A stretch of 64,000 bases of DNA, taken from assembly GCA_039096225.1 (NCBI GenBank), contig JBBPEB010000024.1, forward strand, positions 248,001 to 312,000, in the 5' to 3' direction. The translations under genes were made by a program, and so were the position numbers. The number at the start of each line of letters is the position of its first letter. The stretch's first letter is position 1. Source of the DNA: Blastocystis sp. Blastoise (taxonomy: Eukaryota; Protista; Bigyra: Opalinata). Under the pieces are notes generated by a model. The model saw nothing but the letters and a program-made list of their open reading frames with translations, was not told where the DNA came from and did not search any database. Positions 1-52,012 of the stretch are shown here, piece after piece.

Positions 1-39
1 AGGGGATAAACTGGCAGAAAGACTATCAGGAATTTCCAT
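1..39 (-). CDS. 5' end of PLV hypothetical protein (MEIPDSLSASLSP...), counterpart of 45799-46326; truncated by window edge
   Basis: Reverse complement of 45799-45837. Confidence 0.8.
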   Translation of the reverse strand, partial: MEIPDSLSASLSP

Positions 40-308
40 GATTATTTAAACCTTCAAAAGTATTTTTATACAATATATTAAATATACTATTTTTAGTGTA
101 CAGTTCTTCATTTCAGTTGCTAACAAAAGCCTATTGCTTCCAGCTGGAAAATAAGCCAATAAAATAGCTTATTTCGTATGACAAGTCGTCGTCATCGTCT
201 AATTGTGTTTTACTAATTTTTTTATCCAATCAGATTACAGATGCCGACTATACTCGTCATCGAAACACAAATAAAAAATGCTAAGTCGACAAAATTAGCC
301 AATCAAAT

Positions 309-326
309 GAACCTTCTAGAACATTC
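309..326. promoter_or_regulatory. Heat-shock-element-like array (4 alternating GAA/TTC units) in a divergent promoter with CCAAT boxes
   Basis: GAAccTTCtaGAAcaTTC; CCAAT at about 156, 226 and 299. Confidence 0.6.
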
Positions 327-437
327 CATAGAGATTCTACACTGTCTCCTAGAATATTTAATATTCCATTTAAATGTATTATTTATTTCATTTTGATAAA
401 TACAAATTTTCTCTCTGTAACGATATTCGCGATTATA

Positions 438-1061
438 ATGCAATTTAATCTTTCTGCTGATTCCCGTAAATGTCTTCAAACTGTTCGTATGGAACTTCTA
501 AAGAATTCTAAGAAGGCTGTTGAAGTTCATAAGAATGTTCTTCGTGATATTGATTTACATCAGTCTCAATTGAATAGAGAAAAGAATCTATTGGGTATTG
601 CAAAATCTAAAGAACGTCTTGCTTCTTTCGAAGTCGAAAACTATAGATCAGCTTTAAAACGTATAAACGCGGTTATTAAAGGTCTTGAAGATTATGAAGA
701 ATTCGCTGCTGATATTTATACTCAACAACTTAATGAAGAACAAGATATTCAAGATATTATCAATACTGAAGATCTTTTAGAAAGTGATAGAACTACTATT
801 TTATGTTCTGAAGATTCTAAAGAACATTCGAATTCTCAAGATGATGATTTTGATATTATGAAATTCCATATGGAAGATGGATTCCTCTATGATGAAAAAG
901 GTAAAGTTTATTCTTATGAAGTTGTTCATGCTAAGAGTATTAACAAGATTAAAAGAGATCCTTCAAAACAAATGTATTTCTGGGATGGTATTTTATATGA
1001 TAAGAATGGATGGCCTCATTCATGTACATATATTAATAGTCAAGAACCAATTGAAATTTAA
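438..1061 (+). CDS. PLV hypothetical coiled-coil protein (ATG start MQFNLS)
   Basis: Open in both copies with only 2 aa differences; first ATG at 438; TGTTTTGTT motif downstream. Confidence 0.8.
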   Translation: MQFNLSADSRKCLQTVRMELLKNSKKAVEVHKNVLRDIDLHQSQLNREKNLLGIAKSKERLASFEVENYRSALKRINAVIKGLEDYEEFAADIYTQQLNEEQDIQDIINTEDLLESDRTTILCSEDSKEHSNSQDDDFDIMKFHMEDGFLYDEKGKVYSYEVVHAKSINKIKRDPSKQMYFWDGILYDKNGWPHSCTYINSQEPIEI

Positions 1062-1170
1062 TTATTTTTCTTGTTTATTTTTCTATTTTTACTTATAAAC
1101 TTGTAAAAAATCATTGAAAATTGTTTTGTTTATTGTATATACATTTAAAACACTAAAGTATAAAAAGGAT

Positions 1171-1320
1171 GTTCTAGAAGGTTCTAGAAGGTTCTAGAAT
1201 GTTCTCGAAGGTTCTAGAACATTTAAAAATATAAAGTAATATTTACTATTATAGAATGTTCTAGAAGGTTCTAGAAGGTTCTTGAATGTTCTAGAAGCTT
1301 CCAAAACTGACTTCTAGAAT
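1171..1320. promoter_or_regulatory. Two long HSE-like arrays (10 pentamers each, 1171-1220 and 1254-1301) upstream of the primase-helicase
   Basis: (nTTCnnGAAn)x5 with variation confined to the n positions (TA/TC/TT). Confidence 0.75.
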
Positions 1321-1387
1321 CTTTAATATATTATTTGTTTTAAATGTTGTATTATAATTATTTTCATTATTTATAAGTCAAATAATC

Positions 1388-4300
1388 ATGGAAAATTCAC
1401 AAATTCATTTTGTTTATACTTTTGGTTCCTTTAATCATGATAATTCAAAAGATAATCATAGTGAAATTATTATACCAAATCCATTACCATTTTATAAAAG
1501 TCTATTTACTAATTATCAAAATCCAAAAGAATTATTACATTATATTGATTGTACTCCTTGTAATACATCAACTAATTATAGAAGATTATGGTTTGATTTA
1601 GATTATCACCAAATATCTGATGATTTTTCTTTTCTAACAGATTCTTTTATTCATGAATTTATTGAAGAAATATGTAATCATTGTATTCATTATTATAATC
1701 AAGAATTTATTTCGCTTGTGTATACAAAGAAAGAAGTGAATAAGAAGACAGTTCATAATGAAATACATTATTCATGGGGAATTCATATATATACGAATTG
1801 GTTTGTAAATGGTGATTATTTATTTTTCTTATATAATAGTATGATTCTGAATACCAAATTGGTTGATTTATGTAAAACATATAATTTAGATATAAAAGAA
1901 TTCATTGATTATAATGTTATTGGTAAACCCAGAAAGAATAATGGTTGTATGTTTCTTGGTTGTAGTAAAGATAATTCTCCATCTACTTATAAATTATATG
2001 AAGAATATACCAATAAAACATGGAAGAAAATAGATGATGAAATCGATGAACATTATTATTTCAAAACATTATTGAATTATAAGAATGAAGATGATCTTAT
2101 AAGTGATATTATTAATCCTATTATCTTTTCTAAATTAAAACAATATTCACGTTATAAACGTTATTATGCAAGATTAAATAATTGTTCACGTACTATATTA
2201 TGTTCTATACAAGATATTAAAGATATTCCTATGTTGATTTCTACAGATACTATATTGGATACTACAGCATCTAAAGAAGCTTTATTAGAACGATATTTAT
2301 TATTGATTGGTTCTATTGAAGATATGAATTATTTTGAATCTCATAATACTTGGTATAAATTATGTTGTGCAGCAAAACAGATTTGTAATACAACAAGAGG
2401 ATTAGAATTATTTAAAAATTATTCATTACGTTATGGTCATGATCGAAGTGATGATGTAATTGAATCTACATGGAATCATATACAAGTTGATCCTACTCAT
2501 TTATCGAATAATTATATTTTAAAGATATTAATGGAGAATAAATTATTTAATAAAGATGATGATAATGATTTCATATTTATGTCTATTTTAGAATGTATTC
2601 AATCCTTTAATCTTGTAGATTCACAAACATTAGTTATGTTATTTCAATTATTAGAATTTAATGAAATTGTATCTATTATATTAGATAAAGATAATTTTAT
2701 CTTATATACATTTGATGAATATAATATCTTAAGACGTTGTAAGAATAATTATGATATTAATTTCTTTGAAACCAAAATAACTACATTTATGAAATCGATT
2801 GTAGAGAAATTCAAACTATCAAGATTATATTCCAAAGAGAATGAACAACATCAAAAAATAGTTGATAAAATAATGTCTGCTTCTGTTACTAATGAATATC
2901 ATTATAAAGAATGGTTGAATCGTTATTTGAAGACTTATGGTAAATCTTATAAAGAATATTTAGATACGTATATGGTTCATAAAGAACGTGTTATCTATAC
3001 ACAACTTGGTTATTTATATCCAAAAGAATCTACAGAAGAAGATCCTAGACAATATTATATCCAACCATATCATAAAGAAGATATGGTGTTTGAAGATTTA
3101 TTAATTGATACTGAATTTAATGTAAGTTGGAATATTAATAATGAACAGAAAGATATTATCCAATTATTTGAACAACATATTGCAAGATATTGTGAATTCG
3201 ATAAGAAATATGAAAGTATTATGTTACGTATTCTAACCACTGCTTTCTATGTCAATACTCAGAAAACAGTTTCTTATATATTATATGGTAGTACAGGTAG
3301 TAATGGTAAAACAATAACAACTGATTTAATTTCTCGTATTGTAGGTAGTAATCAATGTATTATAGTAAATCCAGATAATTTAGAAGAAACATCTATAGCT
3401 CCTAAGATTGTAGATATGTCTAATAAAACAATGTATTATATGAATGAATTAATAGAAGAAGATGTTACTGGTAGAAAGAAAACATTTAATCCATTCTCTT
3501 CTAAAGTCTTTAAAGAAATAGCAGAAAAGAAAGAAGGTGCTAGTGCTCGTAAATTATTCAGTAATATATTTACAAAAGTTCATTTCACGGGTACTTTATT
3601 TATGACAAGTAATATCCAACCTACTGCTGTGAATGCTGGTCCTATTGAAAGAAGAGTCTGTTTCTTACCATCATGTTGTCGTTATTTCCCTCCTGGTAAT
3701 GCTAATTTATATGAAGATTATGTAGATCATAATTTACCGAAACGTAAACAGACAGTAGAAAAGAGATTGAAACCCAATCATTATGAAATGGATTATACTC
3801 TATCTGATAAATTCTATCAGAATCGTTCTATTATCTTTAGTTATCTAGTAAGTAATTATTTCTATTCTAGTATGCAATTAGATATGCATGAATTAGATAA
3901 TGAATATCATATAAGTGAATGTAAGAAACGATTCTTTGATCGTAGTACAGAAGGATATGATTTGAAATCTTTTGTTGATAACCATATTACTATAGATCCT
4001 TATTATTTGAATGTAGTTACTATTGAAGATATTTTTAATAGTTATAAGAAAGTGAATAATAATAATCAATTTACGATTAAGAAAGATTTAGATAAATTTA
4101 CAAATGCTTTATTTGGTTGTTTAAGTAGTAAAGATACATTTAATTCTATAGATATTGTGAATATTCATAGAAAACATACTTCAAATTTCTATAAGGGAGG
4201 GAATGCTATTGGTATTTGTGGTTTAATGATTGATAATACTTATAATGAATGTGTGGATACAGATTTATTCTGTTTATCCAATTGTTTATCTAAGAAAGAA

Positions 4301-4390
4301 GAAATTGTTTATAGTGAAGATCAATATCATAATACGTCATCAACAAAACGAATTTTAATAGATAATACTTTATATGCTATACCAAATTAA
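1388..4390 (+). CDS. D5-like primase-helicase (AEP-like + PriCT-2-like + SF3 helicase)
   Basis: RRLWFDLD and GIHIY (AEP motifs); TWYKLCCAAK...GLELFKNYS (PriCT-2-like); Walker A YGSTGSNGKT, Walker B YYMNE, motif C LFMTSN, arginine finger ERR. Confidence 0.85.
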   Translation: MENSQIHFVYTFGSFNHDNSKDNHSEIIIPNPLPFYKSLFTNYQNPKELLHYIDCTPCNTSTNYRRLWFDLDYHQISDDFSFLTDSFIHEFIEEICNHCIHYYNQEFISLVYTKKEVNKKTVHNEIHYSWGIHIYTNWFVNGDYLFFLYNSMILNTKLVDLCKTYNLDIKEFIDYNVIGKPRKNNGCMFLGCSKDNSPSTYKLYEEYTNKTWKKIDDEIDEHYYFKTLLNYKNEDDLISDIINPIIFSKLKQYSRYKRYYARLNNCSRTILCSIQDIKDIPMLISTDTILDTTASKEALLERYLLLIGSIEDMNYFESHNTWYKLCCAAKQICNTTRGLELFKNYSLRYGHDRSDDVIESTWNHIQVDPTHLSNNYILKILMENKLFNKDDDNDFIFMSILECIQSFNLVDSQTLVMLFQLLEFNEIVSIILDKDNFILYTFDEYNILRRCKNNYDINFFETKITTFMKSIVEKFKLSRLYSKENEQHQKIVDKIMSASVTNEYHYKEWLNRYLKTYGKSYKEYLDTYMVHKERVIYTQLGYLYPKESTEEDPRQYYIQPYHKEDMVFEDLLIDTEFNVSWNINNEQKDIIQLFEQHIARYCEFDKKYESIMLRILTTAFYVNTQKTVSYILYGSTGSNGKTITTDLISRIVGSNQCIIVNPDNLEETSIAPKIVDMSNKTMYYMNELIEEDVTGRKKTFNPFSSKVFKEIAEKKEGASARKLFSNIFTKVHFTGTLFMTSNIQPTAVNAGPIERRVCFLPSCCRYFPPGNANLYEDYVDHNLPKRKQTVEKRLKPNHYEMDYTLSDKFYQNRSIIFSYLVSNYFYSSMQLDMHELDNEYHISECKKRFFDRSTEGYDLKSFVDNHITIDPYYLNVVTIEDIFNSYKKVNNNNQFTIKKDLDKFTNALFGCLSSKDTFNSIDIVNIHRKHTSNFYKGGNAIGICGLMIDNTYNECVDTDLFCLSNCLSKKEEIVYSEDQYHNTSSTKRILIDNTLYAIPN

Positions 4391-4434
4391 ATTTATATTT
4401 ATTTTTTACTATAAAGAGTTGTTTTGTTTTAAAA

Positions 4435-6231
4435 TTAATAAAATTTAAATTGTATTCCATGAAAATGTTTTTTAGGGACTTTGACTTTAAAGAATGCATT
4501 ACTTTTATGTTTTTTCAATAAACCATGACCACGATGAATAGGTTCTAAAGGAGGCATAGTAGAAAGACTACGTAATGCATAAGTATCTGAATTATTCATA
4601 ACTATAGGTGTAGAATTTTCATCTTGAGTATTCTGTTGCATAAGAGATGCTTGTGTATTCGTTAATTCTGAATCCGTTGTATTATTATGTAAATGATCAG
4701 GTAATAATTGTTTATTACGTATAAAACGATTATAACGATCTCTAGAATTCTCTGGAACTTCTTCAGATTCTAATGAACATCCTACAGGTAATTCAGTTTC
4801 TAAATCGTTTTTATCTGGATAATGATGCTTTAATAGATCTTTATAATATCTTAATGTAATCATTATAGTATCATTATCTGATGAATATTGTTCTAATGTA
4901 GATAATATCGATTCTGATTTCATATTGAAATTCTCTTTACCAAATACATCTTCATAGTCTTCATCATATTGTTCTATACGATCATTAAATCGTTTACATA
5001 AAAATAATAATTTATTCAATTGATTAATTTCTCTTGTATAAGTAATATTATTCATATCAATATGAAATATTCTTGTTTTATTATCTAAATCTTGTAATTT
5101 AGTTGAATGAGAAGATAAATAAGGAGATATATAATTTTCCATATGTGTTGATTGACTATGTAACATCTTCATAATCGAATTTTCAAAGAGTTCTACACCT
5201 TTAGATTCATGTTCTGAATCATTATGTTGGAATTGTGCTTCTCTTGATAATCTATAATAATATTGAGCAAATAAATGTCTTATAATATCACAACCATTAA
5301 TTAAAGAATTATTCTGTTGTGTTTTATAAATCCATCCTAAATGAGGTTTTATATATTCATCACCAAATTTCAAATCACGTACTTTACCACCATTCTCAGT
5401 AACAAATAAATAATGTCTTGGAAATAAACGTAAGGATCTAGCTAAGACATTTAAATATTCTTCTGATAAATACTGATAAGTAGGATATTCATTCTTACCA
5501 ATTTCAAATCGATTCTTTGTATCATTCACATGAATAGTCAAAGTATTTAAATCAATATAATTGGTTGTTCTTCTTAACGATAAAGGAATTTGTTGACCAC
5601 GAGTATAGATTACACAATCATTATAATCATTACGAGCACATAATGTATCATAAGTTAAAACTAATAAATAACTATTCACATAATATAAATCATTAGGATT
5701 CTCTAAATAATTCTTTTTGGTGATATTAATGATTTCTCCCCAATCAGCTTCACAATTAATAATTTTCTGAGTGATTTCATAATGTCTTGAATAAGTAGCA
5801 TCAATTTGTAAAGAACCCCATAAATGTTCCCATTTCTTTATATTTTGTGGAGTAAATGCTTTATAATTAATGATATCTTCATCATCTGTACAAATAGATA
5901 TATTCTTCATTATATAAGTAATCATTTGCATATAATTAGCTACAGTAGTATTGGATAATCCACCTTGTTGTCCAGGAGCTTCTGTTTGTGTATGTTGCAT
6001 AACATTTTGAAATTGAAATGGATCTGTTAACACTTCTACACAAAAGAATGGTTCTTCCATATCATCTATTTGAATTCGTTCTTCATTACGAAATTTCTTA
6101 CATATTGTCTTTATCCATTTCTTCCAATTTATACTTGTTGATAATTGTATTTTCTTCCAATGTAATAATTGATCTATACAATTTGTAAAGAATTCTTCAC
6201 AATCTTTATCTGAATAACCTGTTGATTGCAT
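4435..6231 (-). CDS. Tyrosine recombinase-family protein 1 (598 aa)
   Basis: ARND(R)...NDTKN(K)...YLF...IIRH(R)...MLHSQSTHMENY(H,Y); motif order matches 50079-51014. Confidence 0.75.
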   Translation of the reverse strand: MQSTGYSDKDCEEFFTNCIDQLLHWKKIQLSTSINWKKWIKTICKKFRNEERIQIDDMEEPFFCVEVLTDPFQFQNVMQHTQTEAPGQQGGLSNTTVANYMQMITYIMKNISICTDDEDIINYKAFTPQNIKKWEHLWGSLQIDATYSRHYEITQKIINCEADWGEIINITKKNYLENPNDLYYVNSYLLVLTYDTLCARNDYNDCVIYTRGQQIPLSLRRTTNYIDLNTLTIHVNDTKNRFEIGKNEYPTYQYLSEEYLNVLARSLRLFPRHYLFVTENGGKVRDLKFGDEYIKPHLGWIYKTQQNNSLINGCDIIRHLFAQYYYRLSREAQFQHNDSEHESKGVELFENSIMKMLHSQSTHMENYISPYLSSHSTKLQDLDNKTRIFHIDMNNITYTREINQLNKLLFLCKRFNDRIEQYDEDYEDVFGKENFNMKSESILSTLEQYSSDNDTIMITLRYYKDLLKHHYPDKNDLETELPVGCSLESEEVPENSRDRYNRFIRNKQLLPDHLHNNTTDSELTNTQASLMQQNTQDENSTPIVMNNSDTYALRSLSTMPPLEPIHRGHGLLKKHKSNAFFKVKVPKKHFHGIQFKFY

Positions 6232-6298
6232 TATTAAAAATTAAATTATTTATAAACAAAACAAATTTATTATTAATATTTTATAACATTTCATAGAA

Positions 6299-6721
6299 TT
6301 ATAAATGAAGAGATTGAACAATAGAATCAACACTTATATTTAATTTCATTAATTGAACAGCTAATTCTTGTATTGATTCATTTTGATTCGAATCAATTTC
6401 TTCTAATTCATTCAAGACTTCTGATATATGTTTGACTTCTTCTTCAATAATAGTTTGTTGTATTTTCATTGTCTTATAATAGACTTTCTTTGTTTGTGGA
6501 TTACAACAATTACAATGAATATCTATATTTTTAACAATTAATTGAAAGAATTCAGTTGATTTTTCAAATAAACATTTTATAGCTTTTATAATAAATTCTA
6601 ATAAAGTATTTTTCTTTTCTATTTCTTCTTCGGATAATGTGGTTGTTGTTGAACTATCTGAACTTGTTGAACTTGTACTTGATAAAGAATGTAAGGATTC
6701 AGATACAGATTTAGGCTCCAT
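6299..6721 (-). CDS. PLV hypothetical protein (Ser/Thr-rich N-terminus, HCNCC, coiled C-terminus)
   Basis: ATG ORF bounded by AT-rich spacers; downstream TGTTTTGTT motif on its strand. Confidence 0.7.
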   Translation of the reverse strand: MEPKSVSESLHSLSSTSSTSSDSSTTTTLSEEEIEKKNTLLEFIIKAIKCLFEKSTEFFQLIVKNIDIHCNCCNPQTKKVYYKTMKIQQTIIEEEVKHISEVLNELEEIDSNQNESIQELAVQLMKLNISVDSIVQSLHL

Positions 6722-6790
6722 TTTTTAATAATTTTTAAATGAATAATATAACAAAACATTTTTTAATTTAAATGAAATGAATTAAAATAT

Positions 6791-9277: not shown

Positions 9278-9372
9278 ATTTTTCTAATTTATTAAATAAT
9301 AATTTATATTAATTTATAAAAATTATTTAATTTTATTTATTTATTAATATTTTATTTAAAATAAAAAGAAAT

Positions 9373-10845
9373 ATGAGAATCTTAAGAATTAAAGATAATA
9401 TTCCTATTCAAAGTGATACTGATATTCTATCAAGTCCTTATATCTTTCAATATCATTGGACTAATGTGGATAATACTTATATCAATTTCAATCAATCCTA
9501 TTTGGATCTTACTGTCAAGGCAACTGTCACAGATAAAGCTGGACCAGTTTCTGTTTATTTAGATGAAACAGGTACTTCTGTTAGTTTCACTTATGATCAA
9601 TTATGTCAATATTTCTTGGATCAATTAGTTCAAAAAGCAAATATTTATTCTATTATTGATTCCACTGATGTTGAAATGGTTTATACATTACCTGATGGAT
9701 CTGATCGTGCTTTGAAATATGAAGAAAACTGTACACATGCTTCACGTGGTCGTAAAATGATTTTATTAAAAGATATCAGTAAGAATGATTTAGAAAAATC
9801 TATGTATGGTGAAGATTTATCTGCAGATACTTATGAATTGAATTCTATTCGTTATATACGTGCACATCCAAAACAATCTATTCATATTGCTATTCCTTTA
9901 TATCTTATTAGTGGTTTAGGTGTTGATGGAGATTCTTTAATATTAACTAAACATTTCAATATGTTATTTAGAACTAGTACTATTGAATCCTTAATTGATA
10001 ATAATATGAGTATTTATTTCAAGAATGGTGGTAAAGATCTATCAACACAATGGTTACATCTAACTGATGAAAAATGGTTTAAGACATTTGAATTGGAATC
10101 AGCTACTATGAATTTAATGACTTATAAAGATATTCAATTCCAAACGAATGAATTATATAAAACTATACCTACATGTATTCAAGTCGATTATCAAAATACA
10201 AGAATAACTAGTGATCATTTCAATATCAATAGAGCTTTACCATTTATACCTGAATATATATTATACTGGTTTACAAATGGGTATAGTTCAACAACTATTA
10301 GTAATGTAGCTAGTCCATCTGTATGGCCTAAATATCAAAGTTGTTTGATTGGTGATGTTCAAATGTTCCCTCAAACTGAATTCCCTACTCAAATGTATTA
10401 TCATAATCTTACTACTAAAGGTCATGTCTTCAATAATGAAGAAACTGCTAGTTTATCTTGTCCTAATAAAAATCTATATTGTTTATGGGCTGATAATTCA
10501 AATCCTGAAACTATTCTTAAATATGATGAATGGATTAAACATCCTATTTATATTATTCCAACTAAAGCATTAATGAATATCCAATCAGATAGTGGTATAG
10601 AAATGAATTTTGATTGTAATCTAGATGTTCATGATATTGAATATGGTCATGCTAATTCATCCACTGTTCCTGATGGATATACATGTACATATAATGAAAC
10701 TACTAAAATATGGACACCTGACACTGGTGCTTCTTATGCCGTTGCTTCTCATGCTGGTATTTATAAACATATTAATACTGAACTAAATGAGAAGCATCCT
10801 TATACATTACATATGATTGCTGTACGTAGTGTACGTGATATTTAA
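9373..10845 (+). CDS. Putative double-jelly-roll major capsid protein 1
   Basis: YINFNQSYLDL, NIYSIID, IPLYLISGLG; collinear paralogue of the next ORF; size and position next to penton and ATPase. Confidence 0.65.
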   Translation: MRILRIKDNIPIQSDTDILSSPYIFQYHWTNVDNTYINFNQSYLDLTVKATVTDKAGPVSVYLDETGTSVSFTYDQLCQYFLDQLVQKANIYSIIDSTDVEMVYTLPDGSDRALKYEENCTHASRGRKMILLKDISKNDLEKSMYGEDLSADTYELNSIRYIRAHPKQSIHIAIPLYLISGLGVDGDSLILTKHFNMLFRTSTIESLIDNNMSIYFKNGGKDLSTQWLHLTDEKWFKTFELESATMNLMTYKDIQFQTNELYKTIPTCIQVDYQNTRITSDHFNINRALPFIPEYILYWFTNGYSSTTISNVASPSVWPKYQSCLIGDVQMFPQTEFPTQMYYHNLTTKGHVFNNEETASLSCPNKNLYCLWADNSNPETILKYDEWIKHPIYIIPTKALMNIQSDSGIEMNFDCNLDVHDIEYGHANSSTVPDGYTCTYNETTKIWTPDTGASYAVASHAGIYKHINTELNEKHPYTLHMIAVRSVRDI

Positions 10846-11015
10846 ATTTAATATTTCTTACTTACTATTCTTAACGTTAACTTGTTTAATTAATTCTATT
10901 CTATTCTATATTCCAATCATTTGTTTTGTTATGAATTTCAAATAATTTTATAATTATAAAATATCATTATTATTTTATTTTTTATTTAAAAAATACATAA
11001 ACAATAATTATTAAC

Positions 11016-12239: not shown

Positions 12240-12329
12240 TTTAATTATCTAATATTTTCTTTTATCAATTTATACAATTTAATAAATATTGTTTTGTTTA
12301 TCAATACATAATTAATTTATTTAATAAAA

Positions 12330-12995: not shown

Positions 12996-13063
12996 TAAAA
13001 TCATATATTTATCATTAACTTATCATTAATTATTTTTTGTTTTGTTGATTAAAATCATATAAA

Positions 13064-14101: not shown

Positions 14102-14154
14102 TTTTTTTATATTTTAATTTGTCATATAAACCATAATTATTTTATTGTTTTGTT

Positions 14155-15192: not shown

Positions 15193-15268
15193 TTATTTTA
15201 ACTTTTATTATTTCATAATTAATTATTTGTTTTGTTATATAATTATTTTTAAATTAATACAATAAATA

Positions 15269-20778: not shown

Positions 20779-20820
<42 letters not shown>

Positions 20821-44460: not shown

Positions 44461-44518
44461 CTTATAAATAATGAAAATAAATATGGTATAAAATTCAAAA
44501 CAAATAATATATTAAAGA

Positions 44519-44667
44519 TTCTAGAAGTCAGTTTTAGAAGCTTCTAGAACCTTCTAGAACCTTCTAGAACATTCAGGAACATTCTATAATAGTAAATATT
44601 ACTTTATATTTTTAAATGTTCTAGAACCTTCGAGAACCTTCGAGAACCTTCTAGAACCTTCTAGAAC
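44519..44667. promoter_or_regulatory. HSE-like arrays (copy of 1171-1320)
   Basis: TTCnnGAA arrays; visible differences from copy 1 within the arrays fall in n positions. Confidence 0.75.
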
Positions 44668-44776
44668 ATCCTTTTTATACTTTAGTGTTTTAAATGTATA
44701 TACAATAAACAAAACAATTTTCAATGATTTTTTACAAGTTTATAAGTAAAAATAGAAAAATAAACAAGAAAAATAA

Positions 44777-45400
44777 TTAAATTTCAATTGGTTCTTGACT
44801 ATTAATATATGTACATGAATGAGGCCATCCATTTTTATCATATAAAATACCATCCCAGAAATACATTTGTTTTGAAGGATCTCTTTTAATCTTGTTAATA
44901 CTCTTAGCATGAACAACTTCATAAGTATAAACTTTACCTTTTTCATCATAAAGAAATCCATCTTCCATATGGAATTTCATAATATCAAAATCATCATCTT
45001 TAGAATTCGAATGTTCTTTAGAATCTTCAGAACATAAAATAGTAGTTCTATCACTTTCTAAAAGATCTTCAGTATTGATAATATCTTGAATATCTTGTTC
45101 TTCATTAAGTTGTTGAGTATAAATATCAGCAGCGAATTCTTCATAATCTTCAAGACCTTTAATAACCGCGTTTATACGTTTTAAAGCTGATCTATAGTTT
45201 TCGACTTCGAAAGAAGCAAGACGTTCTTTAGATTTTGCAATACCCAATAGATTCTTTTCTCTATTCAATTGAGACTGATGTAAATCAATATCACGAAGAA
45301 CATTCTTATGAACTTCAACAGCCTTCTTAGAATTCTTAAGAAGTTCCATACGAACAGTTTGAAGACATTTACGGGAATCAGCAGAAAGATTAAATTGCAT
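44777..45400 (-). CDS. PLV hypothetical coiled-coil protein (copy of 438-1061)
   Basis: Near-identical translation. Confidence 0.8.
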   Translation of the reverse strand: MQFNLSADSRKCLQTVRMELLKNSKKAVEVHKNVLRDIDLHQSQLNREKNLLGIAKSKERLASFEVENYRSALKRINAVIKGLEDYEEFAADIYTQQLNEEQDIQDIINTEDLLESDRTTILCSEDSKEHSNSKDDDFDIMKFHMEDGFLYDEKGKVYTYEVVHAKSINKIKRDPSKQMYFWDGILYDKNGWPHSCTYINSQEPIEI

Positions 45401-45798
45401 TATAATCGCGAATATCGTTACAGAGAGAAAATTTGTATTTATCAAAATGAAATAAATAATACATTTAAATGGAATATTAAATATTCTAGGAGACAGTGTA
45501 GAATCTCTATGGAATGTTCTAGAAGGTTCATTTGATTGGCTAATTTTATCGACTTAGCATTTTTTATTTGTGTTTCAATGACGAGTATAGTTGGCATCTG
45601 TAATTTGATTGGATAAAAAAATTAGTAAAACACAATTAGACGATGACGACGATGTGTCATACGAAATAAGTTATTTTATTGGCTTATTTTCCAGCTGGAA
45701 GCAATAGGCTTTTGTTAGCAACTGAAATGAAGAACTGTACACTAAAAATAGTATATTTAATATATTGTATAAAAATACTTTTGAAGGTTTAAATAATC

Positions 45799-46326
45799 AT
45801 GGAAATTCCTGATAGTCTTTCTGCCAGTTTATCCCCTTTCGGTCAAGCCATGATATCCCCCTTGTTGAATCCATTTGAAAATAGTGTTTCTGCAAATCCT
45901 ATGGCTTTACCCAATGATAATGATTTCTGTTTTAATTCGCGTGACGAAATCATGTTTGAAGATCCACCTCAAGAAATTCATCCAATCAATGATGTTTACG
46001 TATCTAAAAATCCAGATAGATATCATTCGGTTAACAATCAACCAATACAATTTCAAGATCAAGTAAATACAAATCCTGATAAGAAAGCATTATTATTTAC
46101 AAATGAGGAGTTAACAAATATATCCAGTCAATTCGAATCTTTATTTCAAACTATTGAAACAGCTGATAATATATTAAATGGTATTTATTGTACTGTTGAT
46201 CATTTAAAAACAAAGATTGAAAGTCAGAAACAAGATTTGAAACAGATTCATGATGATTCTAAAGAAATTGTTTCATTATTATCCGAATATTCTATTCCTT
46301 CTATGTCTGAAATATTTGATCATTAA
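45799..46326 (+). CDS. PLV hypothetical protein, C-terminal coiled coil
   Basis: 175-aa ATG ORF; start conserved in copy 1. Confidence 0.8.
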   Translation: MEIPDSLSASLSPFGQAMISPLLNPFENSVSANPMALPNDNDFCFNSRDEIMFEDPPQEIHPINDVYVSKNPDRYHSVNNQPIQFQDQVNTNPDKKALLFTNEELTNISSQFESLFQTIETADNILNGIYCTVDHLKTKIESQKQDLKQIHDDSKEIVSLLSEYSIPSMSEIFDH

Positions 46327-46413
46327 TTATTTTTATTTAATTAATTATTTTGTTTTGTTTATTTTTTAAATTAATTACACAAAGTTTAAATGGAGAATAG
46401 AATAGTTTCAAAT

Positions 46414-46521
46414 AGAATTCTTGAATGGTCTAATGGATCTATTAAAGAAATATGTAACCACAGTATCATGGTTCGATTCCGTTAAAATGTTTCCATTAGA
46501 TTATTCAAGTGTTCTTTTTTT
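46414..46521 (+). ncRNA. Candidate RNA polymerase III small RNA (~105 nt; VA/vault-RNA-like architecture)
   Basis: A-box TGGTCTAATGG (46426-46436), B-box GGTTCGATTCC (46470-46480), T7 terminator (46515-46521); the 5' and 3' 24 nt pair at 23/24 positions. Confidence 0.7.
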
Positions 46522-46567
46522 CTAGAACCTTCTAGAACCTTCTAGAACCTTCTCGAACATTCTGGAA
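46520..46567. promoter_or_regulatory. HSE-like array (10 units) upstream of the SSB-like gene
   Basis: TTCtaGAAccTTCtaGAAccTTCtaGAAccTTCtcGAAcaTTCtgGAA. Confidence 0.75.
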
Positions 46568-46644
46568 AATTGATTCATTTGAAAAGAATATCGTAATATA
46601 TTAGTATTAAAATACTTATATTTTTACTAAATACTTAACTAAAA

Positions 46645-47238
46645 ATGTCTACAACTGAATTTAAAAAACCTACTATTCTTGATACTTCTAACTTTAATTT
46701 ACAATGGGATGACACCAAAGAAAATGCTGTTCTTTTAAATAATAATCATCGTGTATGTATTTCTACTGATGCTACACCATGTTTATTTGGTTATATTGTT
46801 ACACGTGATAAATGGACTTTATTAACAATTGAAGATGATAATCAAGTATTCTTAACTGCTTATAAAGAACTTTATCGTAAATTATGTGAATTATGTCCTG
46901 ATGGTGATATTGTTAATTTTGTACGTATGGATAATGGTAAGTATAAGATTACAATTAAAGTACCTATTAATGCATCGAAGAATGTTACTATTGATATTAC
47001 TGATAAAAGAGATAAGAAGATTAATATCGGTAAAGATCCTAAGTTAACTTACGAAGAAATACGTGAAAAGTATATTCCACCAAATACGTTATGTAAAGTA
47101 TTATTTACAATACATGGTATTCATCGTTATAATAACAAGTATTATATTGGTTTATATGCTCGTTCTATTAAAGTCATCGATAAATCTACGAAGAATACTA
47201 ATAGTAATGATACTATTATTGATTTAACTAATTTATAA
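46645..47238 (+). CDS. Putative OB-fold single-stranded DNA-binding protein
   Basis: C-terminal IPPNTLCKVLFTIHGIHRYNNKYYIGLYARSIKV resembles the viral (T7 gp2.5/NCLDV-like) SSB pattern; function inferred. Confidence 0.55.
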   Translation: MSTTEFKKPTILDTSNFNLQWDDTKENAVLLNNNHRVCISTDATPCLFGYIVTRDKWTLLTIEDDNQVFLTAYKELYRKLCELCPDGDIVNFVRMDNGKYKITIKVPINASKNVTIDITDKRDKKINIGKDPKLTYEEIREKYIPPNTLCKVLFTIHGIHRYNNKYYIGLYARSIKVIDKSTKNTNSNDTIIDLTNL

Positions 47239-47313
47239 ATTTTTAATGTTAAATTTATTTTTTATTAATATATTTGTTTTGTTTATAAATAATTTTATAA
47301 TTGAAATAAAAAA

Positions 47314-48942
47314 ATGCAAAGTTGTATATTAGGAATGCCAAGTCCTGGTACTTTTGGTATGAATTTAATTTCAACTGGAAAAGAATATAGGCGATATAAT
47401 ACACAACCATTACATAAAATGGATCAATATAATCCAATATTTCATGAAATAGGTCCAAATTCATCTATGCCTGTGTCTACTTTAGAAAGTAAAGAAATAC
47501 ATGATGGTAAAGAAGATGATTATGTAGATCGCTCTAAAACATTTGGTAAAGATGCTGTTCCACAAGGAAATGGTGCTTTAATTCGTGCTAGAGCAGCAGG
47601 TAAAGGTGTAATGAAAGCAGCTGGTCCAGAAGAAGATAAAATAGATGGTGAAGATCGTCAATATAAAGTATTAAATCCATGTAAACCAAGACGTAAATCT
47701 GGTAGAGGAATTATTCCAAATAAATCAGAAATCAATAAATTAGAGAATAATCAAGGTTCTGGTATTGGTGATGCAATTAAAAATAAAGTAAAAAATATGT
47801 ATCAACGAAATGTATTAGATATAAGAGATGCTATTGTAGATAAAAAAGCTAATAGAAAAGCTCGTGATGCATTAGCTATTTTAGCTCAATATGTTGGTGA
47901 CGGTCATCATGATCTTGATGATGAATTCAAAAGATTCTATGAACATAAAATAAAACGTGGTGGAAAAATTCCTATATCTGTTGCTTCAGCAATTATGAAT
48001 GCAATTAAAAATAAGAAAATGATTAAGAATCCAAAATTAAGAAGAATGTTAAGACCTTCAATTATACCAAAATATATAGATTTAGATTCAGCTCAAAGTG
48101 GTGATGGTATATTAAGAGTAAAAAGAGGTGGTGGATTCTGGAGCGGATTAATGGATTATGCACCAGCTCTATTAGGTGTAGTTGATAAAGGTATGGATTC
48201 TTTTGCTAAAGGTAGAAAAGCTTATTATGATACACATTTGGCACAACAATCAAGTGAATTAAATGATATGGAATTTGAAATGGAAAAATTAAAACGTCAA
48301 CAAGCATTAAATGAAATGAAAAAGCAAATAGGTTCAGGAAATACAATAAATAAAATGTTTGAAGGATATTATGATGTAGCTGATGAAATGCAAGATGCTC
48401 TTGATGAAGATGATAGACTACATCCACAACCCGTTGTTCAACCTCCACCACCTCCACAACAACAAGTTGATCGACCTCCTCAATCTCAACCTCCTCAACC
48501 TTATAAACCCATGTCTCGTGATGAACAAAGTTATTATTATAAGATTTATGGTTTCCCTCAAAATGATAAAGAAAAAGTCGATAGAAAATGGAAAGAAGAT
48601 GAAAGGGATAAACGAATAGCTGCAAGAAGAGCTAAACGTAGAGGTTATGGTGGTCGAGTTAAATTAAGTAAAGAAGAATTCTTAGAACGAATGAGAAGAG
48701 GAAAAGAAGCTAAAAAGAAAAGAGGTGGTGATTTGAATCCATTAGTATCATTTTATACAGATTTTATAATACCTGCAGGAGTGGCACGAAAAAAACGTAA
48801 AATACAAGAGGCTGATTTAAAACAATTACAAATTATAAAACAGAAAAGAGATAATAATGAAACATTAAATGCAGGTGACGAATTGTTTTGGAAAAAAAAG
48901 AAATATATGTTATCAAAAAACTCAGGGGAGGGGATCTGGTAA
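47314..48942 (+). CDS. Basic, GG/GxG-motif-rich protein; candidate core protein precursor
   Basis: QGNGAL, SGRGII, QGSGIG, KRGGK, SGDGIL, KRGGGFW, KRGGDL, SGEGIW; adjacent to the protease. Confidence 0.75.
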   Translation: MQSCILGMPSPGTFGMNLISTGKEYRRYNTQPLHKMDQYNPIFHEIGPNSSMPVSTLESKEIHDGKEDDYVDRSKTFGKDAVPQGNGALIRARAAGKGVMKAAGPEEDKIDGEDRQYKVLNPCKPRRKSGRGIIPNKSEINKLENNQGSGIGDAIKNKVKNMYQRNVLDIRDAIVDKKANRKARDALAILAQYVGDGHHDLDDEFKRFYEHKIKRGGKIPISVASAIMNAIKNKKMIKNPKLRRMLRPSIIPKYIDLDSAQSGDGILRVKRGGGFWSGLMDYAPALLGVVDKGMDSFAKGRKAYYDTHLAQQSSELNDMEFEMEKLKRQQALNEMKKQIGSGNTINKMFEGYYDVADEMQDALDEDDRLHPQPVVQPPPPPQQQVDRPPQSQPPQPYKPMSRDEQSYYYKIYGFPQNDKEKVDRKWKEDERDKRIAARRAKRRGYGGRVKLSKEEFLERMRRGKEAKKKRGGDLNPLVSFYTDFIIPAGVARKKRKIQEADLKQLQIIKQKRDNNETLNAGDELFWKKKKYMLSKNSGEGIW

Positions 48943-49508
48943 AGAGTAAAGATGAGAAATTAATTCAAAATTCAATGAATTGCGATAATCCTATTATATC
49001 TGATAAAACTCGTCATGTTACTCCTAGATCCCCTGATAATTTCAAACAAACTCTATCTCAATATTGTAATATACCCAATTCTTTAATATCTCAATTATAT
49101 AATTATGCTTATTTAAATAAACCTACCTCTTCTGTTGCTTGTGATCGTGCTGAAAATGTTATGAAACAATTAAATAAAACGAATTCTCAATCTTATAATT
49201 ATTATAATAGTTATGATGATTTTGAACAAAATATAGATCAAGATCAAACTAAATTTAATATGATCTTTCATGAAAGTCCTAGTGATCCTTATAATGGTCA
49301 TTTTGAAGCTGTTATTTATAATGGTAATAAAAACATAGAACACTATTCATCATTAGGAAATGAACCTACTTTTTCAAAATCATTTATTCAAAATCATAAT
49401 ATTCAATATAATCCTATTCAACACCAAAAAACTACAAGTAATGCAAATGGTTGCTTTTATTATTCTTTACTTTATTTACTTTCTAATGGAAATCTTATGC
49501 CTTGTTAA
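48888..49508 (+). CDS. Adenain-like cysteine maturation protease (divergent); start uncertain (ATG 48975 or frameshift fusion)
   Basis: NGHFEAV...EHYSSLG...QHQKTTSNANGCFYYSLLYL matches the H...(D/E)SxG...Q...C layout, but the acidic residue is atypical. Confidence 0.65.
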   Translation: MEKKEIYVIKKLRGGDLVKSKDEKLIQNSMNCDNPIISDKTRHVTPRSPDNFKQTLSQYCNIPNSLISQLYNYAYLNKPTSSVACDRAENVMKQLNKTNSQSYNYYNSYDDFEQNIDQDQTKFNMIFHESPSDPYNGHFEAVIYNGNKNIEHYSSLGNEPTFSKSFIQNHNIQYNPIQHQKTTSNANGCFYYSLLYLLSNGNLMPC

Positions 49509-49512
49509 AACC

Positions 49513-49535
49513 TTCTAGAATATTCTAGAACATTC
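49513..49535. promoter_or_regulatory. HSE-like array (5 units) upstream of the 124-aa ORF
   Basis: TTCtaGAAtaTTCtaGAAcaTTC. Confidence 0.65.
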
Positions 49536-49630
49536 ATTTTGAACTGGCTCTATTTGTAGAATCTTTAATTTATTATATTAGTGTTTTATATAATTAATTT
49601 GTTTTGTTTAATCATTGGTTAATTTAAATA

Positions 49631-50005
49631 ATGAACAAGAAATATCTTAGTTATTCTTATTTTTGTCGTGTGATGAAGAATCTAAAAGAAGAAGGAATTA
49701 AATCCAAAAAGAATGAAATAGCGAATCTATTAGAACAATTTTTAAATAATAATAACAACAAGAATCTTAGTGATTTGCAATTGAGTTACTGTAGAAACAT
49801 GTTACTTTATATAGATGATCCTGTGATTCATCAACGTCTTGAAATGCTATTGGATAAACAATATATGAAGAATGAGAATCAATATCAAGAGGATAAGAAT
49901 CTTATTCAACCAAATAATATGTTTATGCCAACTATGAAAAGTAATCAACAACAAAATCAATATCAAAATAATAATAATAATCTATCTTTCTTACCTTTTA
50001 ATTAA
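49631..50005 (+). CDS. PLV hypothetical protein (124 aa)
   Basis: ATG ORF behind an HSE array. Confidence 0.65.
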   Translation: MNKKYLSYSYFCRVMKNLKEEGIKSKKNEIANLLEQFLNNNNNKNLSDLQLSYCRNMLLYIDDPVIHQRLEMLLDKQYMKNENQYQEDKNLIQPNNMFMPTMKSNQQQNQYQNNNNNLSFLPFN

Positions 50006-50078
50006 TTTTTATATCCTTTTATTACTAGTTGTTTAGTTATATTCAAAATTAAAACAAAACAAACATAAAAACATAAAA

Positions 50079-51014
50079 TTATTCAATTAATTTTTTAAAT
50101 AAATTATTATTTTCTAAAGATACATAAGAATTAATATGTGTATAATCATTATGACATAAAGCAGAAGCAGAATTTTCTATATCTTGAAATGTATTGGTTG
50201 TAGTTGTAGCATATAATTTTCTTAATGCATTAATGGTCAATTTTGGATGGATTTGTTTTAAATGCTTATTCACAAACCAATCAAATGCTTTAGTAGTAAA
50301 TCCAGTTCGTACAGAAGATTCAAATATAAATTTACGATTTGGATTTCTTTTTAAGAGTAATTCTAGATCTTCAATCAATTCTTTTGGTGCATCTAATTGA
50401 ATTGTAGAGTATTTACCAGCAGTTTTATAATCATTTAATAGAATAGAACCAGTATGTTTCTCTTTATCATAAACAATATAATTCTTATGAATAGCTGGAT
50501 CAATAGTATCTTCTGGTGATAGAATGAATAATTGAGCATAATCAGCACGAGCAGGAGGAAGATAGGAGTAAAAATCTAATATTAATCGTAATGGATTATA
50601 ATTTTCTAATTTATCGTGATATTCATGTAAATATGGAGTCGTAATACCATCTTTAATAAGATCTTGAATTAAAGTACGTTTCTTATTATCCAGATATTTT
50701 TCATACATTGAATTGATAATCACATAAAATTCACACCATTTATTCAAAATACCTTCTTTATTTAATGAAGAAACATTACGTATAATAAATAAAATCAATT
50801 CACATAACGATTTCATTGGACTAATTTTGATTTTACGTTCATTTACCATATAATCCATGAATGAATAAGGATTCTTTAAGAATTCTGAGAACTTTTTAAA
50901 TGGTAATGGGAAAATATATAAATTGAAATAATTAGTTAAACGTTTTTTCCAAATATCAGAATAATTTGAATTCTGTATAACCAAAAGATACTTGTCATAA
51001 TTTGTATTTTTCAT
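50079..51014 (-). CDS. Tyrosine recombinase-family protein 2
   Basis: LPPARADY(R)...NDYKT(K)...FIF...NALRKLYAT(R)...LCHNDYTHINSY(H,Y); first ATG at 51014. Confidence 0.8.
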   Translation of the reverse strand: MKNTNYDKYLLVIQNSNYSDIWKKRLTNYFNLYIFPLPFKKFSEFLKNPYSFMDYMVNERKIKISPMKSLCELILFIIRNVSSLNKEGILNKWCEFYVIINSMYEKYLDNKKRTLIQDLIKDGITTPYLHEYHDKLENYNPLRLILDFYSYLPPARADYAQLFILSPEDTIDPAIHKNYIVYDKEKHTGSILLNDYKTAGKYSTIQLDAPKELIEDLELLLKRNPNRKFIFESSVRTGFTTKAFDWFVNKHLKQIHPKLTINALRKLYATTTTNTFQDIENSASALCHNDYTHINSYVSLENNNLFKKLIE

Positions 51015-51102
51015 TGATTTTCTCAAGTAGAATCTCTAAAACTTCTATTTTCAAAAGAATAATACATAAGAAAATCAAAATAAAATATCTAAGATTCTCA
51101 TG

Positions 51103-52012
51103 TTCTAGAATGTTCTAGAAGTTTCGAGAATGTTCTAGAATATTCTAGAAAATTGATATACATCCCGCCACCTAAAACCACTGGAACACAATTAGTTTCC
51201 CCAGTTTCCCTATTATAATTGTGTTTTTGTGTTCCAAAATCCCTCATTTTTACATTTTTAAGCAATTTGATTGGACAATTCACGATGACGCATCCTATTT
51301 CCATAACGGTCACCCTTGTTTCCAAAAGTCTCTCGTTATAATCGTGGTGGTGGGTACATCTTTTTACAAGACCACACCACCACCAGCTTTTCTTTCACCC
51401 ACTATAAATACATACCTTGATCACTTTACTCTTTTTTATATAAATTTTTTATGATTATCATGACTTTTTATATTATTTATTGATCACTATACATACATTT
51501 TTATTTTTATATATTCCCGTGATTATTTTTATTATTTCTTTTTAGATAGAACCATCCATTTCATCTTTTCTCTATATAAAGGGAGGGTCGGGGTGTGTGT
51601 TTATTTAGCACATTCTGTGCTTCTTTTCGTATTTCTTTCTGTATTCCCGTGATTATTTTACTCACTTTACCAACGATGGAGTCATTTCCTATGAATATTC
51701 CCTGTAAAGGGGAGGGTGTGAGTGTGTATTTTATTTCTTTTATGATTACTATGAGTTTCTCCTTGATCACTTTACGTTTCACGTTGGAATCGGAACACAA
51801 ATAAATTAAAAATAAATAAACATGGGAAAAAATAAATACACACACACACTACCCTACACTCCCATGGTTATTTTACTTCAGAAATGTTATTAATTCTTCC
51901 GTCGAGAACAAAAAGGGGGATGACTTCCCCGCTTATGGCTGCGCGCGTTGCGCAGACTCTATGCGGGGTTTGCATACCCCCTTCTGCAGTTCGAAGAACG
52001 GAAGAATTATTA
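51103..52012. repeat. PLV terminal repeat, copy 2, with a 10-unit HSE array (51103-51150) and terminal hairpin (51888-52012)
   Basis: Near-identical to 17929-18828. Confidence 0.85.

Follow-up and report, generated by a model that had tools for sequence, protein, structure and literature searches.

Sputnik uses a tyrosine recombinase (YR) and a helicase instead of protein-primed PolB (pPolB). Sputnik-type virophages (Maveriviricetes) resemble the element described here in having an MCP, an ATPase and a protease, as well as a penton, which is putative in our element (PMC9952930). Among Polinton-like viruses (PLVs), AHEV_PLV2 and CBEV_PLV1 (PMC11296320) and the oomycete Gossevirus-group elements (PMC7805220) are described in the accessible text of the two reports as lacking pPolB and encoding an AEP-D5 primase-helicase, a YR and adenain. 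Mriyaviricetes have no DNA polymerase and an AEP-SF3 helicase, as is apparent for our element too, and their replication in the nucleus by the host polymerase has been inferred (PMC11253617). Terminal palindromes accompany non-pPolB replicons in Halocafeteria elements: endogenous virophages of Halocafeteria seosinensis and PLV subtype 4 have palindromic TIR tips and replicate with genes other than pPolB, features that our element is predicted to share (10.64898/2026.07.28.741278).

No eukaryote of the gut is more common than Blastocystis (PMC10690189), and Table S1 of a protist-wide MCP survey leaves the count blank for ten Blastocystis assemblies (PMC10120064). The only comparable DNA virus that we found in print for this genus, the Blastocystis hominis MELD virus, shares the host genus of our element and has divergent virion proteins, and it uses an adintovirus-like PolB and an integrase, neither of which our element has (PMC8502044). 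Searches combining Blastocystis with Polinton or jelly-roll DNA virus, outside subscription journals, retrieved no publication that describes the element; within the same limits, no paper paired two tyrosine recombinases with polinton, and of the 141 papers on Pol III terms none of the 15 listed mentioned polinton.

Organization of the Blastocystis element

The window, i.e. the whole stretch of DNA analysed, is 64 kb of a Blastocystis sp. Blastoise contig and includes one flank of each of two provirus copies:

1..18825, plus strand: provirus copy 1 (right three quarters), its left part beyond the window edge
44461..52009, minus strand: provirus copy 2 (left quarter, inverted), ending at 44461 just ahead of the primase-helicase start

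Self-BLAST of the window aligned 1-1377 with 45837-44461 in inverted orientation (1,377 nt, 98.0% identity) and 17929-18825 with 51113-52009 in direct orientation (898 nt, 98.6%), as expected from the near-identical overlap of ~1.4 kb and the common ~900-bp terminus in the preliminary description of this DNA. The inverted overlap and the directly repeated terminus together indicate that the two copies lie in opposite orientation and that each displays a different end of an element bounded by a single kind of ~900-bp TIR. Arithmetically, the joined pieces give a unit of 24,997 nt, the ~25-kb TIR-bounded element that had been proposed. The notion of two partial copies stands for copy 2 and most likely falls for copy 1. 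Copy 2 does break off at 44461, where its CCACCAGTG end has no partner anywhere in the window. Copy 1 is most likely the whole element, cut by the window edge only, since the first 13 codons of ORF175 are already encoded by bases 39-1 (minus strand) at that edge and the accession order in other genome copies is collinear.

This order was read from near-identical Blastocystis sp. Blastoise proteins. ORF175 accessions were collinear with those of the helicase, YR1, MCP2 and ATPase in 18 of the 19 listed, which again supports a single joined element. The span from YR2 to ORF494 was exactly 13 accessions for seven of the 14 listed YR2 accessions, corresponding to the 14 large ORFs seen in the window; it was 14 and 16-17 accessions in two further cases, and the partner was unlisted for five of the 14. 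An annotated polymerase or integrase would not fit into the gene order that 18 of the 19 copies examined have in common. Of the features that define Polintons/Mavericks, TIRs are present, and pPolB and an RVE integrase are absent. Of those of PLVs in the broad sense, the following are present: a double-jelly-roll MCP, a packaging ATPase, a TIR-bounded length within 15-40 kb, and a primase-helicase plus YR.

Every ORF listed in the preliminary description was present and open, including the shortest in the following list, which gives the ORFs with no assigned function together with a putative core protein:

438..1061, plus strand: ORF207, no assigned function, also at 44777-45400 (minus strand) in copy 2
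6299..6721, minus strand: ORF140, no assigned function
14155..17639, plus strand: three ORFs of 345, 265 and 494 aa, no assigned function
17712..17882, minus strand: acidic 56-aa ORF behind the heat-shock-element-type (HSE) array of the right TIR
45799..46326, plus strand: ORF175, no assigned function, starting inside the overlap with copy 1
47314..48942, plus strand: basic 542-aa protein, putatively a core protein
49631..50005, plus strand: ORF124, no assigned function

Pfam and PHROG matches of unassigned ORFs to tape-measure, holin and DUF families were discarded as coiled-coil or composition noise. HUH endonuclease, VLTF2/3 and RuvC had no Pfam or PHROG match among the element ORFs, several small ones of which are unassigned.

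Capsid, packaging and protease genes

6791..9277, minus strand: putative large penton/spike, 828 aa, by motif only; differs among copies
9373..10845, plus strand: MCP1, 490 aa, paralogue of MCP2
11016..12239, plus strand: MCP2, 407 aa, double jelly roll (model)
12330..12995, plus strand: putative penton, 221 aa, by motif only
13064..14101, plus strand: packaging ATPase, 345 aa (phrog_2666, E 1.2e-10)
48975..49508, plus strand: protease of adenain-like fold, 177 aa

The AF2 model of MCP2 (pLDDT 83) is a double jelly roll, as had been anticipated for the capsid candidates. The best PDB match in Foldseek was the Sputnik MCP (E 3e-13) and the best BFVD match was the 'MELD virus sp.' protein A0A8S5L5M3 (TM 0.67, 14% identity), whose host is not given. 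VIA matched MCP2 at Z 18.8, with the MCPs of PBCV-1, faustovirus, Sputnik, mavirus and ASFV lying within 2 Z units. MCP1 is 28% identical to MCP2 (E 8e-40) and by this homology is a double-jelly-roll MCP too; Pfam gave no match for either. The ATPase retains its Walker A/B and GRH motifs. A P-x-G-x-Y motif common to the 221-aa and 828-aa ORFs is the sole basis of their penton labels, which, like the SSB and core labels, we assume from motifs only. The 90% cluster of the 828-aa protein has only 3 members, against 15-21 in the clusters of neighbouring genes.

The protease was called adenain-like by Atlas (0.96, 209 shared features), with PF00770 on 13% of that cluster; a PDB sequence search with it gave nothing useful. 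H109 and Q151 are present and a Cys lies at 160; Ser125 and Asn158 occupy what we take to be the positions of the adenain acid and catalytic Cys.

Tyrosine recombinases

4435..6231, minus strand: YR1, tyrosine recombinase, 598 aa (R200, K239, R318, H358, Y367)
50079..51014, minus strand: YR2, tyrosine recombinase, 311 aa, adjoining the TIR (R156, K197, R265, H288, Y297)

The claim of two tyrosine recombinases is borne out by the R-K-R-H-Y residues that both proteins retain, invariant in the alignments (all nine sequences for YR1, both for YR2) and intact in 14 of 15 YR1 and 10 of 10 YR2 genome copies. The His of HxxR is replaced by Asp/Asn in both proteins (Asp in YR1). In a model of moderate quality (pLDDT 64) YR1 folds like Cre/Xer, with Cre (Z 10.8) and XerH (9.1) as best matches and protelomerases at only 4.6-5.4; Foldseek matches of this model all had E ≥ 0.07. 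YR2 matched PF00589 at E 0.084 only, and a PDB sequence search with it gave nothing useful; histone matches in that search (E 0.7-0.9) were dismissed. Only one cluster of YR2 relatives exists outside the Blastocystis sp. Blastoise genome, so two YRs per element may not be general for the wider family.

Predicted terminal hairpins and expression signals

17929..18825, plus strand: right TIR of copy 1, ~900 bp
51113..52009, plus strand: left TIR of copy 2 (self-BLAST)
18703..18829: terminal imperfect rod-like hairpin of copy 1, ~127 nt, GC-rich (predicted fold)
51888..52013: hairpin at the tip of copy 2, oriented as in copy 1 (predicted fold)

The strongest folding windows of the whole element are these terminal hairpins. 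That of copy 1 has a predicted energy of -40.7 kcal/mol (z -7.8), matched by 0/200 shuffles, and that of copy 2 has -35.2 kcal/mol (z -8.0). Both hairpins (2/2) are in the same orientation, hence no flip/flop was seen.

A TGTTTTGTT element occurs on the sense strand 18-92 nt past the stop codon of 15 of the 19 ORFs. Shuffled sequences gave a mean of 0.05 (maximum 1 in 2000), upstream controls 0/6, and the 37.6 kb of flanks 2 matches. The Blastocystis poly(A) element is published as TGTTTGTT (PMC4159000), a consensus that our match exceeds by one T; it has been reported as not enriched in genes of tortoise-clade Blastocystis (PMC10690189). Neither the hairpins nor this poly(A) signal had been noticed in the preliminary description. 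Two further kinds of signal were located:

1171..1302: HSE-type arrays ahead of the primase-helicase, with further arrays at 17928-17967, 46519-46568, 49512-49536 and 51102-51151
46420..46521, plus strand: predicted Pol III-type small RNA with an 18-bp closing stem including two G-U pairs, an A-box, a B-box and a T7 run

HSE arrays of at least 4 units are present inside the element only and not in flanking DNA. The small RNA, which had been predicted before, folds with z -5.5; Rfam and ARAGORN returned nothing at gathering level, and weak sub-gathering matches were dismissed. One public sequencing run, not on record as RNA, includes element sequence as short contigs on copy-2 ORFs; none of its contigs lay on the TIR or flank, and it gave no junction or flip/flop read. 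Taken together, these poly(A), HSE and Pol III signals, all of host type, speak for expression in the host nucleus rather than for reliance on a helper virus.

Copies and relatives

The Blastocystis sp. Blastoise genome likely harbours about 20 copies of the provirus that hardly differ from one another, and this spread agrees with the suggestion of recent activity. Public assemblies hold 83 relatives of the capsid lineage. The many relatives in public metagenomes suggest an overlooked virus family, and those of YR2, MCP1 and MCP2 lie on contigs of matching sizes. No locus DNA of relatives came from IMG/VR, JGI metagenomes, GTDB genomes or phage records. With a profile of 86 MCPs, no more than 13 among 1.84 billion representatives passed E ≤ 0.001, in keeping with the very divergent lineage postulated earlier. 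Our MCP tree was built quickly from family members alone and has long branches; it does not place the family.

Replication genes and proposed life cycle

1388..4390, plus strand: putative AEP primase plus SF3 (D5-like) helicase, 1000 aa
46645..47238, plus strand: putative SSB, 197 aa, by motif

The sole profile match of the 1000-aa protein, phrog_1156 (E 2.2e-9), covers the helicase part (residues 574-749), and a PDB sequence search gave no match. Its N-terminus, which we presume from motifs to be of AEP type, has intact DxD (70/72), H133 and D174. The putative SSB found no support in Pfam, PHROG or phage records. In agreement with the reported absence of pPolB and DDE motifs, six-frame searches of both parts with patterns that we took to be diagnostic yielded no pPolB, PolA or RVE motif, Pfam and PHROG gave no pPolB or RVE family, and no ORF is left that could hold pPolB. 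With no recognisable ordinary DNA polymerase, copying likely takes place in the host nucleus.

As the best explanation of the gene set, gene order, folds, intact catalytic motifs and cis-signals shown here, we consider the element to be probably an endogenous dsDNA virus of the Polinton-like type, intact and multi-copy, whose transcription and copying are likely nuclear and helper-free and which likely enters and leaves the chromosome through YR action at its AT-rich tips, its terminal hairpins predicted to act as replication origin or self-priming ends. Host Pol II would transcribe mostly single-gene mRNAs with cleavage at the TGTTTTGTT element, the small RNA would come from host Pol III, and the host heat-shock factor would turn on the primase-helicase, the putative SSB and YR2. 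YR2, which adjoins the TIR behind an HSE array, would be the excision/integration enzyme; YR1, the more conserved of the two and located beside the primase-helicase, may resolve replicated end-to-end junctions. Primase-helicase and SSB would open and prime the DNA, for whose processive synthesis a host polymerase seems a little better than an even bet, the viral AEP primase-polymerase a lesser candidate and a helper virus an improbable one. The ATPase would then package the DNA into a capsid built from both MCPs and both penton-like proteins.

The preliminary description had the element rely on a host or helper polymerase. This dependence is not established, as the intact AEP-type N-terminus could be a primase-polymerase and the cis-signals oppose a cytoplasmic helper. 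The primase may itself polymerise, and it is possible, if clearly the less probable course, that the element is a self-sufficient replicon whose AEP domain copies the genome, i.e. not polymerase-less in function. DxD and H133 are kept in 15/15 copies. D5-type enzymes in poxviruses, however, are primases alongside a separate polymerase, and the AEP call is one of motifs, outside the reach of the helicase match. The same hypothesis of a primase-polymerase has been put forward for entomopoxvirus-associated PLVs (PMC11296320), and Bellas 2023 cautioned that the replication enzyme may go undetected (PMC10120064).

It is unlikely that the element is a virophage-like parasite, latent until a helper NCLDV provides polymerase and late transcription, with the second YR integrating it into the helper genome. 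Its set of MCP, penton, ATPase, adenain, primase-helicase and YR is, we presume, akin to that of Sputnik, whose MCP is also the best Foldseek match, and the presence of two integrases has been connected with two target genomes (10.64898/2026.07.28.741278). Nevertheless, VIA barely separates Sputnik from the other MCPs compared, our MCP is ~100 aa shorter than the virophage MCPs compared, the poly(A), HSE and Pol III signals are of host type, and a study on gut egoviruses reports the absence of gene flux between them and Blastocystis (10.1101/2024.03.23.586382).

We equally doubt that the element is a capsid-bearing YR transposon confined to the cell, which no longer makes particles and whose hairpins are by-products of recombination or folding. 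The Asn at the protease Cys position, the truncation of copy 2 and a few genome copies with broken YR1 or ATPase would suit such a transposon, as would accidental annealing, an alternative origin proposed for such palindromes (10.64898/2026.07.28.741278). Against it, no structural ORF of copy 1 is interrupted and many copies carry these ORFs almost unchanged, both MCPs are kept in metagenomic relatives at 45-63%, and the 828-aa spike-like protein varies among copies, as expected of a receptor-binding protein. It is very improbable that the two pieces belong to distinct elements with nothing but their ends in common, be they a satellite and its helper or two segments: both halves never occur in one stretch within the window, yet in 18 of the 19 cases accession order joins genes seen only in copy 2 to genes seen only in copy 1, and the metagenomic YR2, MCP1 and MCP2 relatives lie on same-size contigs.

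The reading as an endogenous, helper-free nuclear virus can be extended, though this is clearly less likely than not, to a widespread undescribed family of latent Blastocystis viruses that are PolB-free, with a two-MCP capsid and a VA-like Pol III RNA. Stress would wake them via the host heat-shock factor, one YR would excise and integrate them, and the other would resolve hairpin telomeres that are poxvirus-like and bulged.

Comparison with known systems

With ~20 intact copies in a cultured strain, pPolB-less PLV replication, the role of hairpins as origins and the need for a helper become testable. The element would also give markers with which such viruses could be counted in gut metagenomes, and it might serve as an integrating vector for Blastocystis, a genetically poor protist.

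The pPolB-less PLVs share with the Blastocystis element TIRs, the lack of pPolB and RVE, a primase-helicase plus YR, a protease, a double-jelly-roll MCP, an ATPase and a similar size; as far as the accessible text of the reports goes, the element differs from them in its two YRs, two MCP paralogues, an MCP unmatched by named proteins in our searches, long imperfect hairpins, a Pol III-type RNA, a poly(A)-like element and no known helper (PMC11296320, PMC7805220). The Halocafeteria elements have 52-nt palindromes (subtype 5), RVE integrases and TSDs, whereas ours has ~127-nt bulged hairpins, two YRs and no RVE (10.64898/2026.07.28.741278). Compared with Sputnik-type virophages, its MCP is shorter and duplicated, its form is TIR-bounded and host-integrated, and its cis-signals are host-nuclear (PMC9952930). 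In contrast to Mriyaviricetes, it is integrated, has YRs and TIRs, and measures 25 kb against 35-45 kb (PMC11253617). The combination of a primase-helicase and a tyrosine recombinase without pPolB is already known in Polinton-like viruses; new are the isolated capsid lineage, the two recombinases, the two MCPs, the ~127-nt imperfect terminal hairpins, the Pol III-type small RNA and the Blastocystis-type poly(A) element.

Two copies delimit one provirus

Copy 1 of the provirus lies at 1-18825 (plus strand), its left part beyond the window edge, and copy 2 is the inverted left quarter of the same unit (44461-52009, minus strand). Self-BLAST of the window aligned 1-1377 with 45837-44461 in inverted orientation (98.0%, 27 differences) and 17929-18825 with 51113-52009 directly (898 nt, 98.6%). 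Because copy 2 is inverted, the second match represents one TIR of ~900 bp, which forms the right end of copy 1 and, in copy 2, the left end. The implied unit measures 24,997 nt, 83% of it coding, and every open reading frame in the preliminary description was found in the window and is open. We conclude that the element is a real, intact and recently spread endogenous virus.

A single GC-rich hairpin with bulges is predicted for the final ~127 nt of each TIR (-40.7 kcal/mol, z -7.8, and -35.2 kcal/mol, z -8.0; 0/200 shuffles), and these stretches are the strongest folding windows in the provirus. The hairpins of the two copies have the same orientation, and the sequence common to both stops at the hairpin 3' arm. 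A second, weaker stem within the TIR (18526-18671) carries a sub-threshold miRNA-like match.

Copy 2 breaks at 44461, eleven bases short of the helicase start position, and self-BLAST placed none of its missing genes elsewhere in the window. A CCACCAGTG end abuts the break (44452-44460), and a second in the same direction lies at 44029-44037, with a short telomere-like CCCTAA pair immediately ahead of it. The two are possibly transposon ends and the cause of the truncation.

The flanking DNA is AT-rich and eukaryotic, and it carries a non-LTR reverse transcriptase (RT), a Helitron and a transposase of the Tc1 type.

Neighbouring elements in the window
19347-24539: RT ORF, 1730 aa (Pfam RVT_1); C-terminal restriction-like endonuclease motif by eye
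28729-33222, minus strand: intact Helitron Rep-helicase ORF, 1497 aa (Pfam PIF1, Helitron_like_N)
35363-37995 and 41700-42632: repeats (489-bp and 62-bp tandem arrays, 900-bp 91% duplicate)
52390-54061: Tc1/IS630-type transposase in pieces (Pfam DDE_3); ~160-bp ends recur at 61421-61700
62792-63391, minus strand: host short-chain dehydrogenase exon

The RT ORF is bracketed by ~500-600-bp arms built of 29-bp units (18829-25571), each palindromic and mutually inverted (94%). Copy 1 seems to have integrated within the left arm, ~60 bp in from its outer end.

The two pieces belong to one collinear element

The join was assessed from accession-number order at NCBI, with ORF175 (named by its size in amino acids), which is whole solely in copy 2, as the anchor; this order covers up to 15 members per cluster and 4 accessions each, and not every copy shows each gene. 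Among the ORF175 accessions listed, 18 of 19 are collinear with the helicase, the tyrosine recombinase YR1, the capsid protein MCP2 or the ATPase at the expected steps, in agreement with the single collinear element proposed earlier. Ahead of the nineteenth come the second recombinase, YR2, and a core protein of 548 aa, which differs from the 542-aa copy 2 version and whose contig equals in size that of the window proteins. Given this context, and since bases 39-1 of the window already encode the start of ORF175, these three genes most likely represent the left arm of copy 1 itself. In 7 of the 14 YR2 accessions listed, YR2 to ORF494 spans exactly 13 accessions, equal to the 14 large ORFs here, which leaves room for no annotated polymerase or integrase between them.

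Metagenomic relatives of YR2 (P0223 cluster), MCP1 (P0345) and MCP2 (P0014) lie on equal-sized contigs of 23,710, 23,715, 23,719 and 23,956, and one YR1 and one MCP2 relative both lie on 23,048-sized contigs. Such equal sizes suggest, as less than proof, that these genes share contigs.

The provirus is multicopy in its host

The best MCP2 match is a Blastocystis sp. Blastoise protein (92%). By exact look-up, 10 of 11 clusters of the other ORFs have named proteins solely from this organism; clusters for window ORFs hold 3-21 members, and three small ORFs are absent from the protein cluster collection. MCP2 occurs at 19 contig places, and the helicase and YR1 clusters have 19 and 21 members, so the genome-wide count sought in the preliminary description is about 20 copies. 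Between copies, nine families have a median protein identity of 95-99%, and the large penton one of 91%. Remoter MCP2-like (48-51%) and MCP1-like proteins in the same organism indicate that sister families exist.

Capsid and morphogenesis proteins

The MCP2 AF2 model (86 alignment rows, pLDDT 83) is a double jelly roll, the fold expected of a capsid candidate: Sputnik is the top Foldseek match (E 3e-13), VIA comparison gave PBCV-1 (Z 18.8, rmsd 5.8 over 322), faustovirus (18.5) and Sputnik (17.4), and a MELD-virus protein is best in BFVD (TM 0.67). MCP1 is paralogous to MCP2 (28%, E 8e-40) and has separate orthologues (45-53%), so the duplication is old. The MCP profile matches 13 of 1.84 billion representatives; the capsid lineage is thus isolated, as the suggestion of a very divergent lineage had it. 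The MCP2 search lists 87 clusters, 4 from Blastocystis sp. Blastoise and 83 without a name (55-63%), and 71 aligned rows form one group at 80% or more.

The packaging ATPase matches a PHROG (E 1.2e-10). A 177-aa ORF (48975-49508) is adenain-like by Atlas features (0.96). It has Asn at what we take to be the catalytic Cys position and Cys two residues later, and may be a pseudo-protease or have a shifted active site. The penton, SSB and core labels are putative, at motif level. In the 828-aa penton-like protein (6791-9277, minus strand) the penton motif is repeated three times, and this protein is much more variable among copies than adjoining genes.

Recombinases and replication proteins

The search with YR1 (4435-6231, minus strand) gave 163 matches, the 119 without a name being listed at 57-60%; R200, K239, R318, H358 and Y367 are invariant. 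Its model (pLDDT 64) best fits Cre (Z 10.8, rmsd 4.2 over 182) and also matches XerH, SroF, XerA and core-binding domains; protelomerases score far lower. Foldseek put the same families on top, but with E of at least 0.07. YR2 (50079-51014, minus strand) has the same catalytic residues, is collinear with YR1 across 281 columns (E 3e-4, probability 38%) and has one relative cluster only outside Blastocystis sp. Blastoise. The 1000-aa helicase protein (1388-4390, plus strand) carries SF3 motifs, a PHROG primase match covering the helicase part, and N-terminal motifs that we take to be AEP-like. The gene set is complete for morphogenesis and replication without PolB or RVE, and includes two intact YRs.

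Putative transcription signals

Arrays of 4-10 alternating nGAAn units stand ahead of ORF207/ORF175, the helicase, SSB, ORF124, YR2 and a 56-aa ORF, and are absent from the flanks and from 50 shuffles; we take this alternation to be the heat-shock element pattern. At 46420-46521 (plus strand) a closing stem of 18 bp that includes two G-U pairs is predicted (z -5.5), and the region holds the sole A-box/B-box pair matching the search pattern in the window, ends in seven T and matched no Rfam family. Its layout resembles that of Pol III transcripts, adenovirus VA RNA among them.

On the sense strand, TGTTTTGTT lies 18-92 nt past the stop of 15 of the 19 ORFs (shuffles 0.05, maximum 1 of 2000; upstream controls 0/6; flanks 2 in 37.6 kb), and three antisense matches are those of convergent partner genes. 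This motif is similar to the poly(A) element of Blastocystis, given as TGTTTGTT (PMC4159000). The latter is reportedly not enriched in isolates of the tortoise clade (PMC10690189), which may include Blastoise. The cis-signal set of this provirus is unusually readable.

Proposed replication cycle

Host Pol II and Pol III would transcribe the provirus in the nucleus, and stress would induce the replication arm and YR2. YR2, which adjoins the TIR, could be the integrase/excisionase (by the end-module argument of PMC11296320), and YR1, the conserved recombinase beside the helicase, would then be a resolvase of replicated ends. The hairpins might be an origin or self-priming ends, after the model outlined in 10.64898/2026.07.28.741278. 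DNA synthesis would most likely fall to a host polymerase; the AEP domain may itself perform it, and a helper is the least likely source.

Comparison with known systems

The absence of pPolB and RVE means that this is not a Polinton, and membership among the virophages (PMC9952930) or mriyaviruses (PMC11253617) is unlikely. The provirus is predicted to work like the pPolB-less Polinton-like viruses with primase-helicase, YR and adenain (PMC11296320, PMC7805220 and PMC10120064). The apparent lack of a polymerase combined with a YR, which headed the preliminary description, is therefore already known. The literature searched contained no description of this provirus or of any two-YR Polinton-like virus. 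In the tables of Bellas 2023 (PMC10120064), with the count column taken, after Table S4, as the MCP count, ten Blastocystis assemblies are blank and Proteromonas has 285. The published Blastocystis MELD virus (PMC8502044) has PolB and an integrase, whereas the provirus has no PolB or RVE. Such viruses had been missed in this host and lineage.
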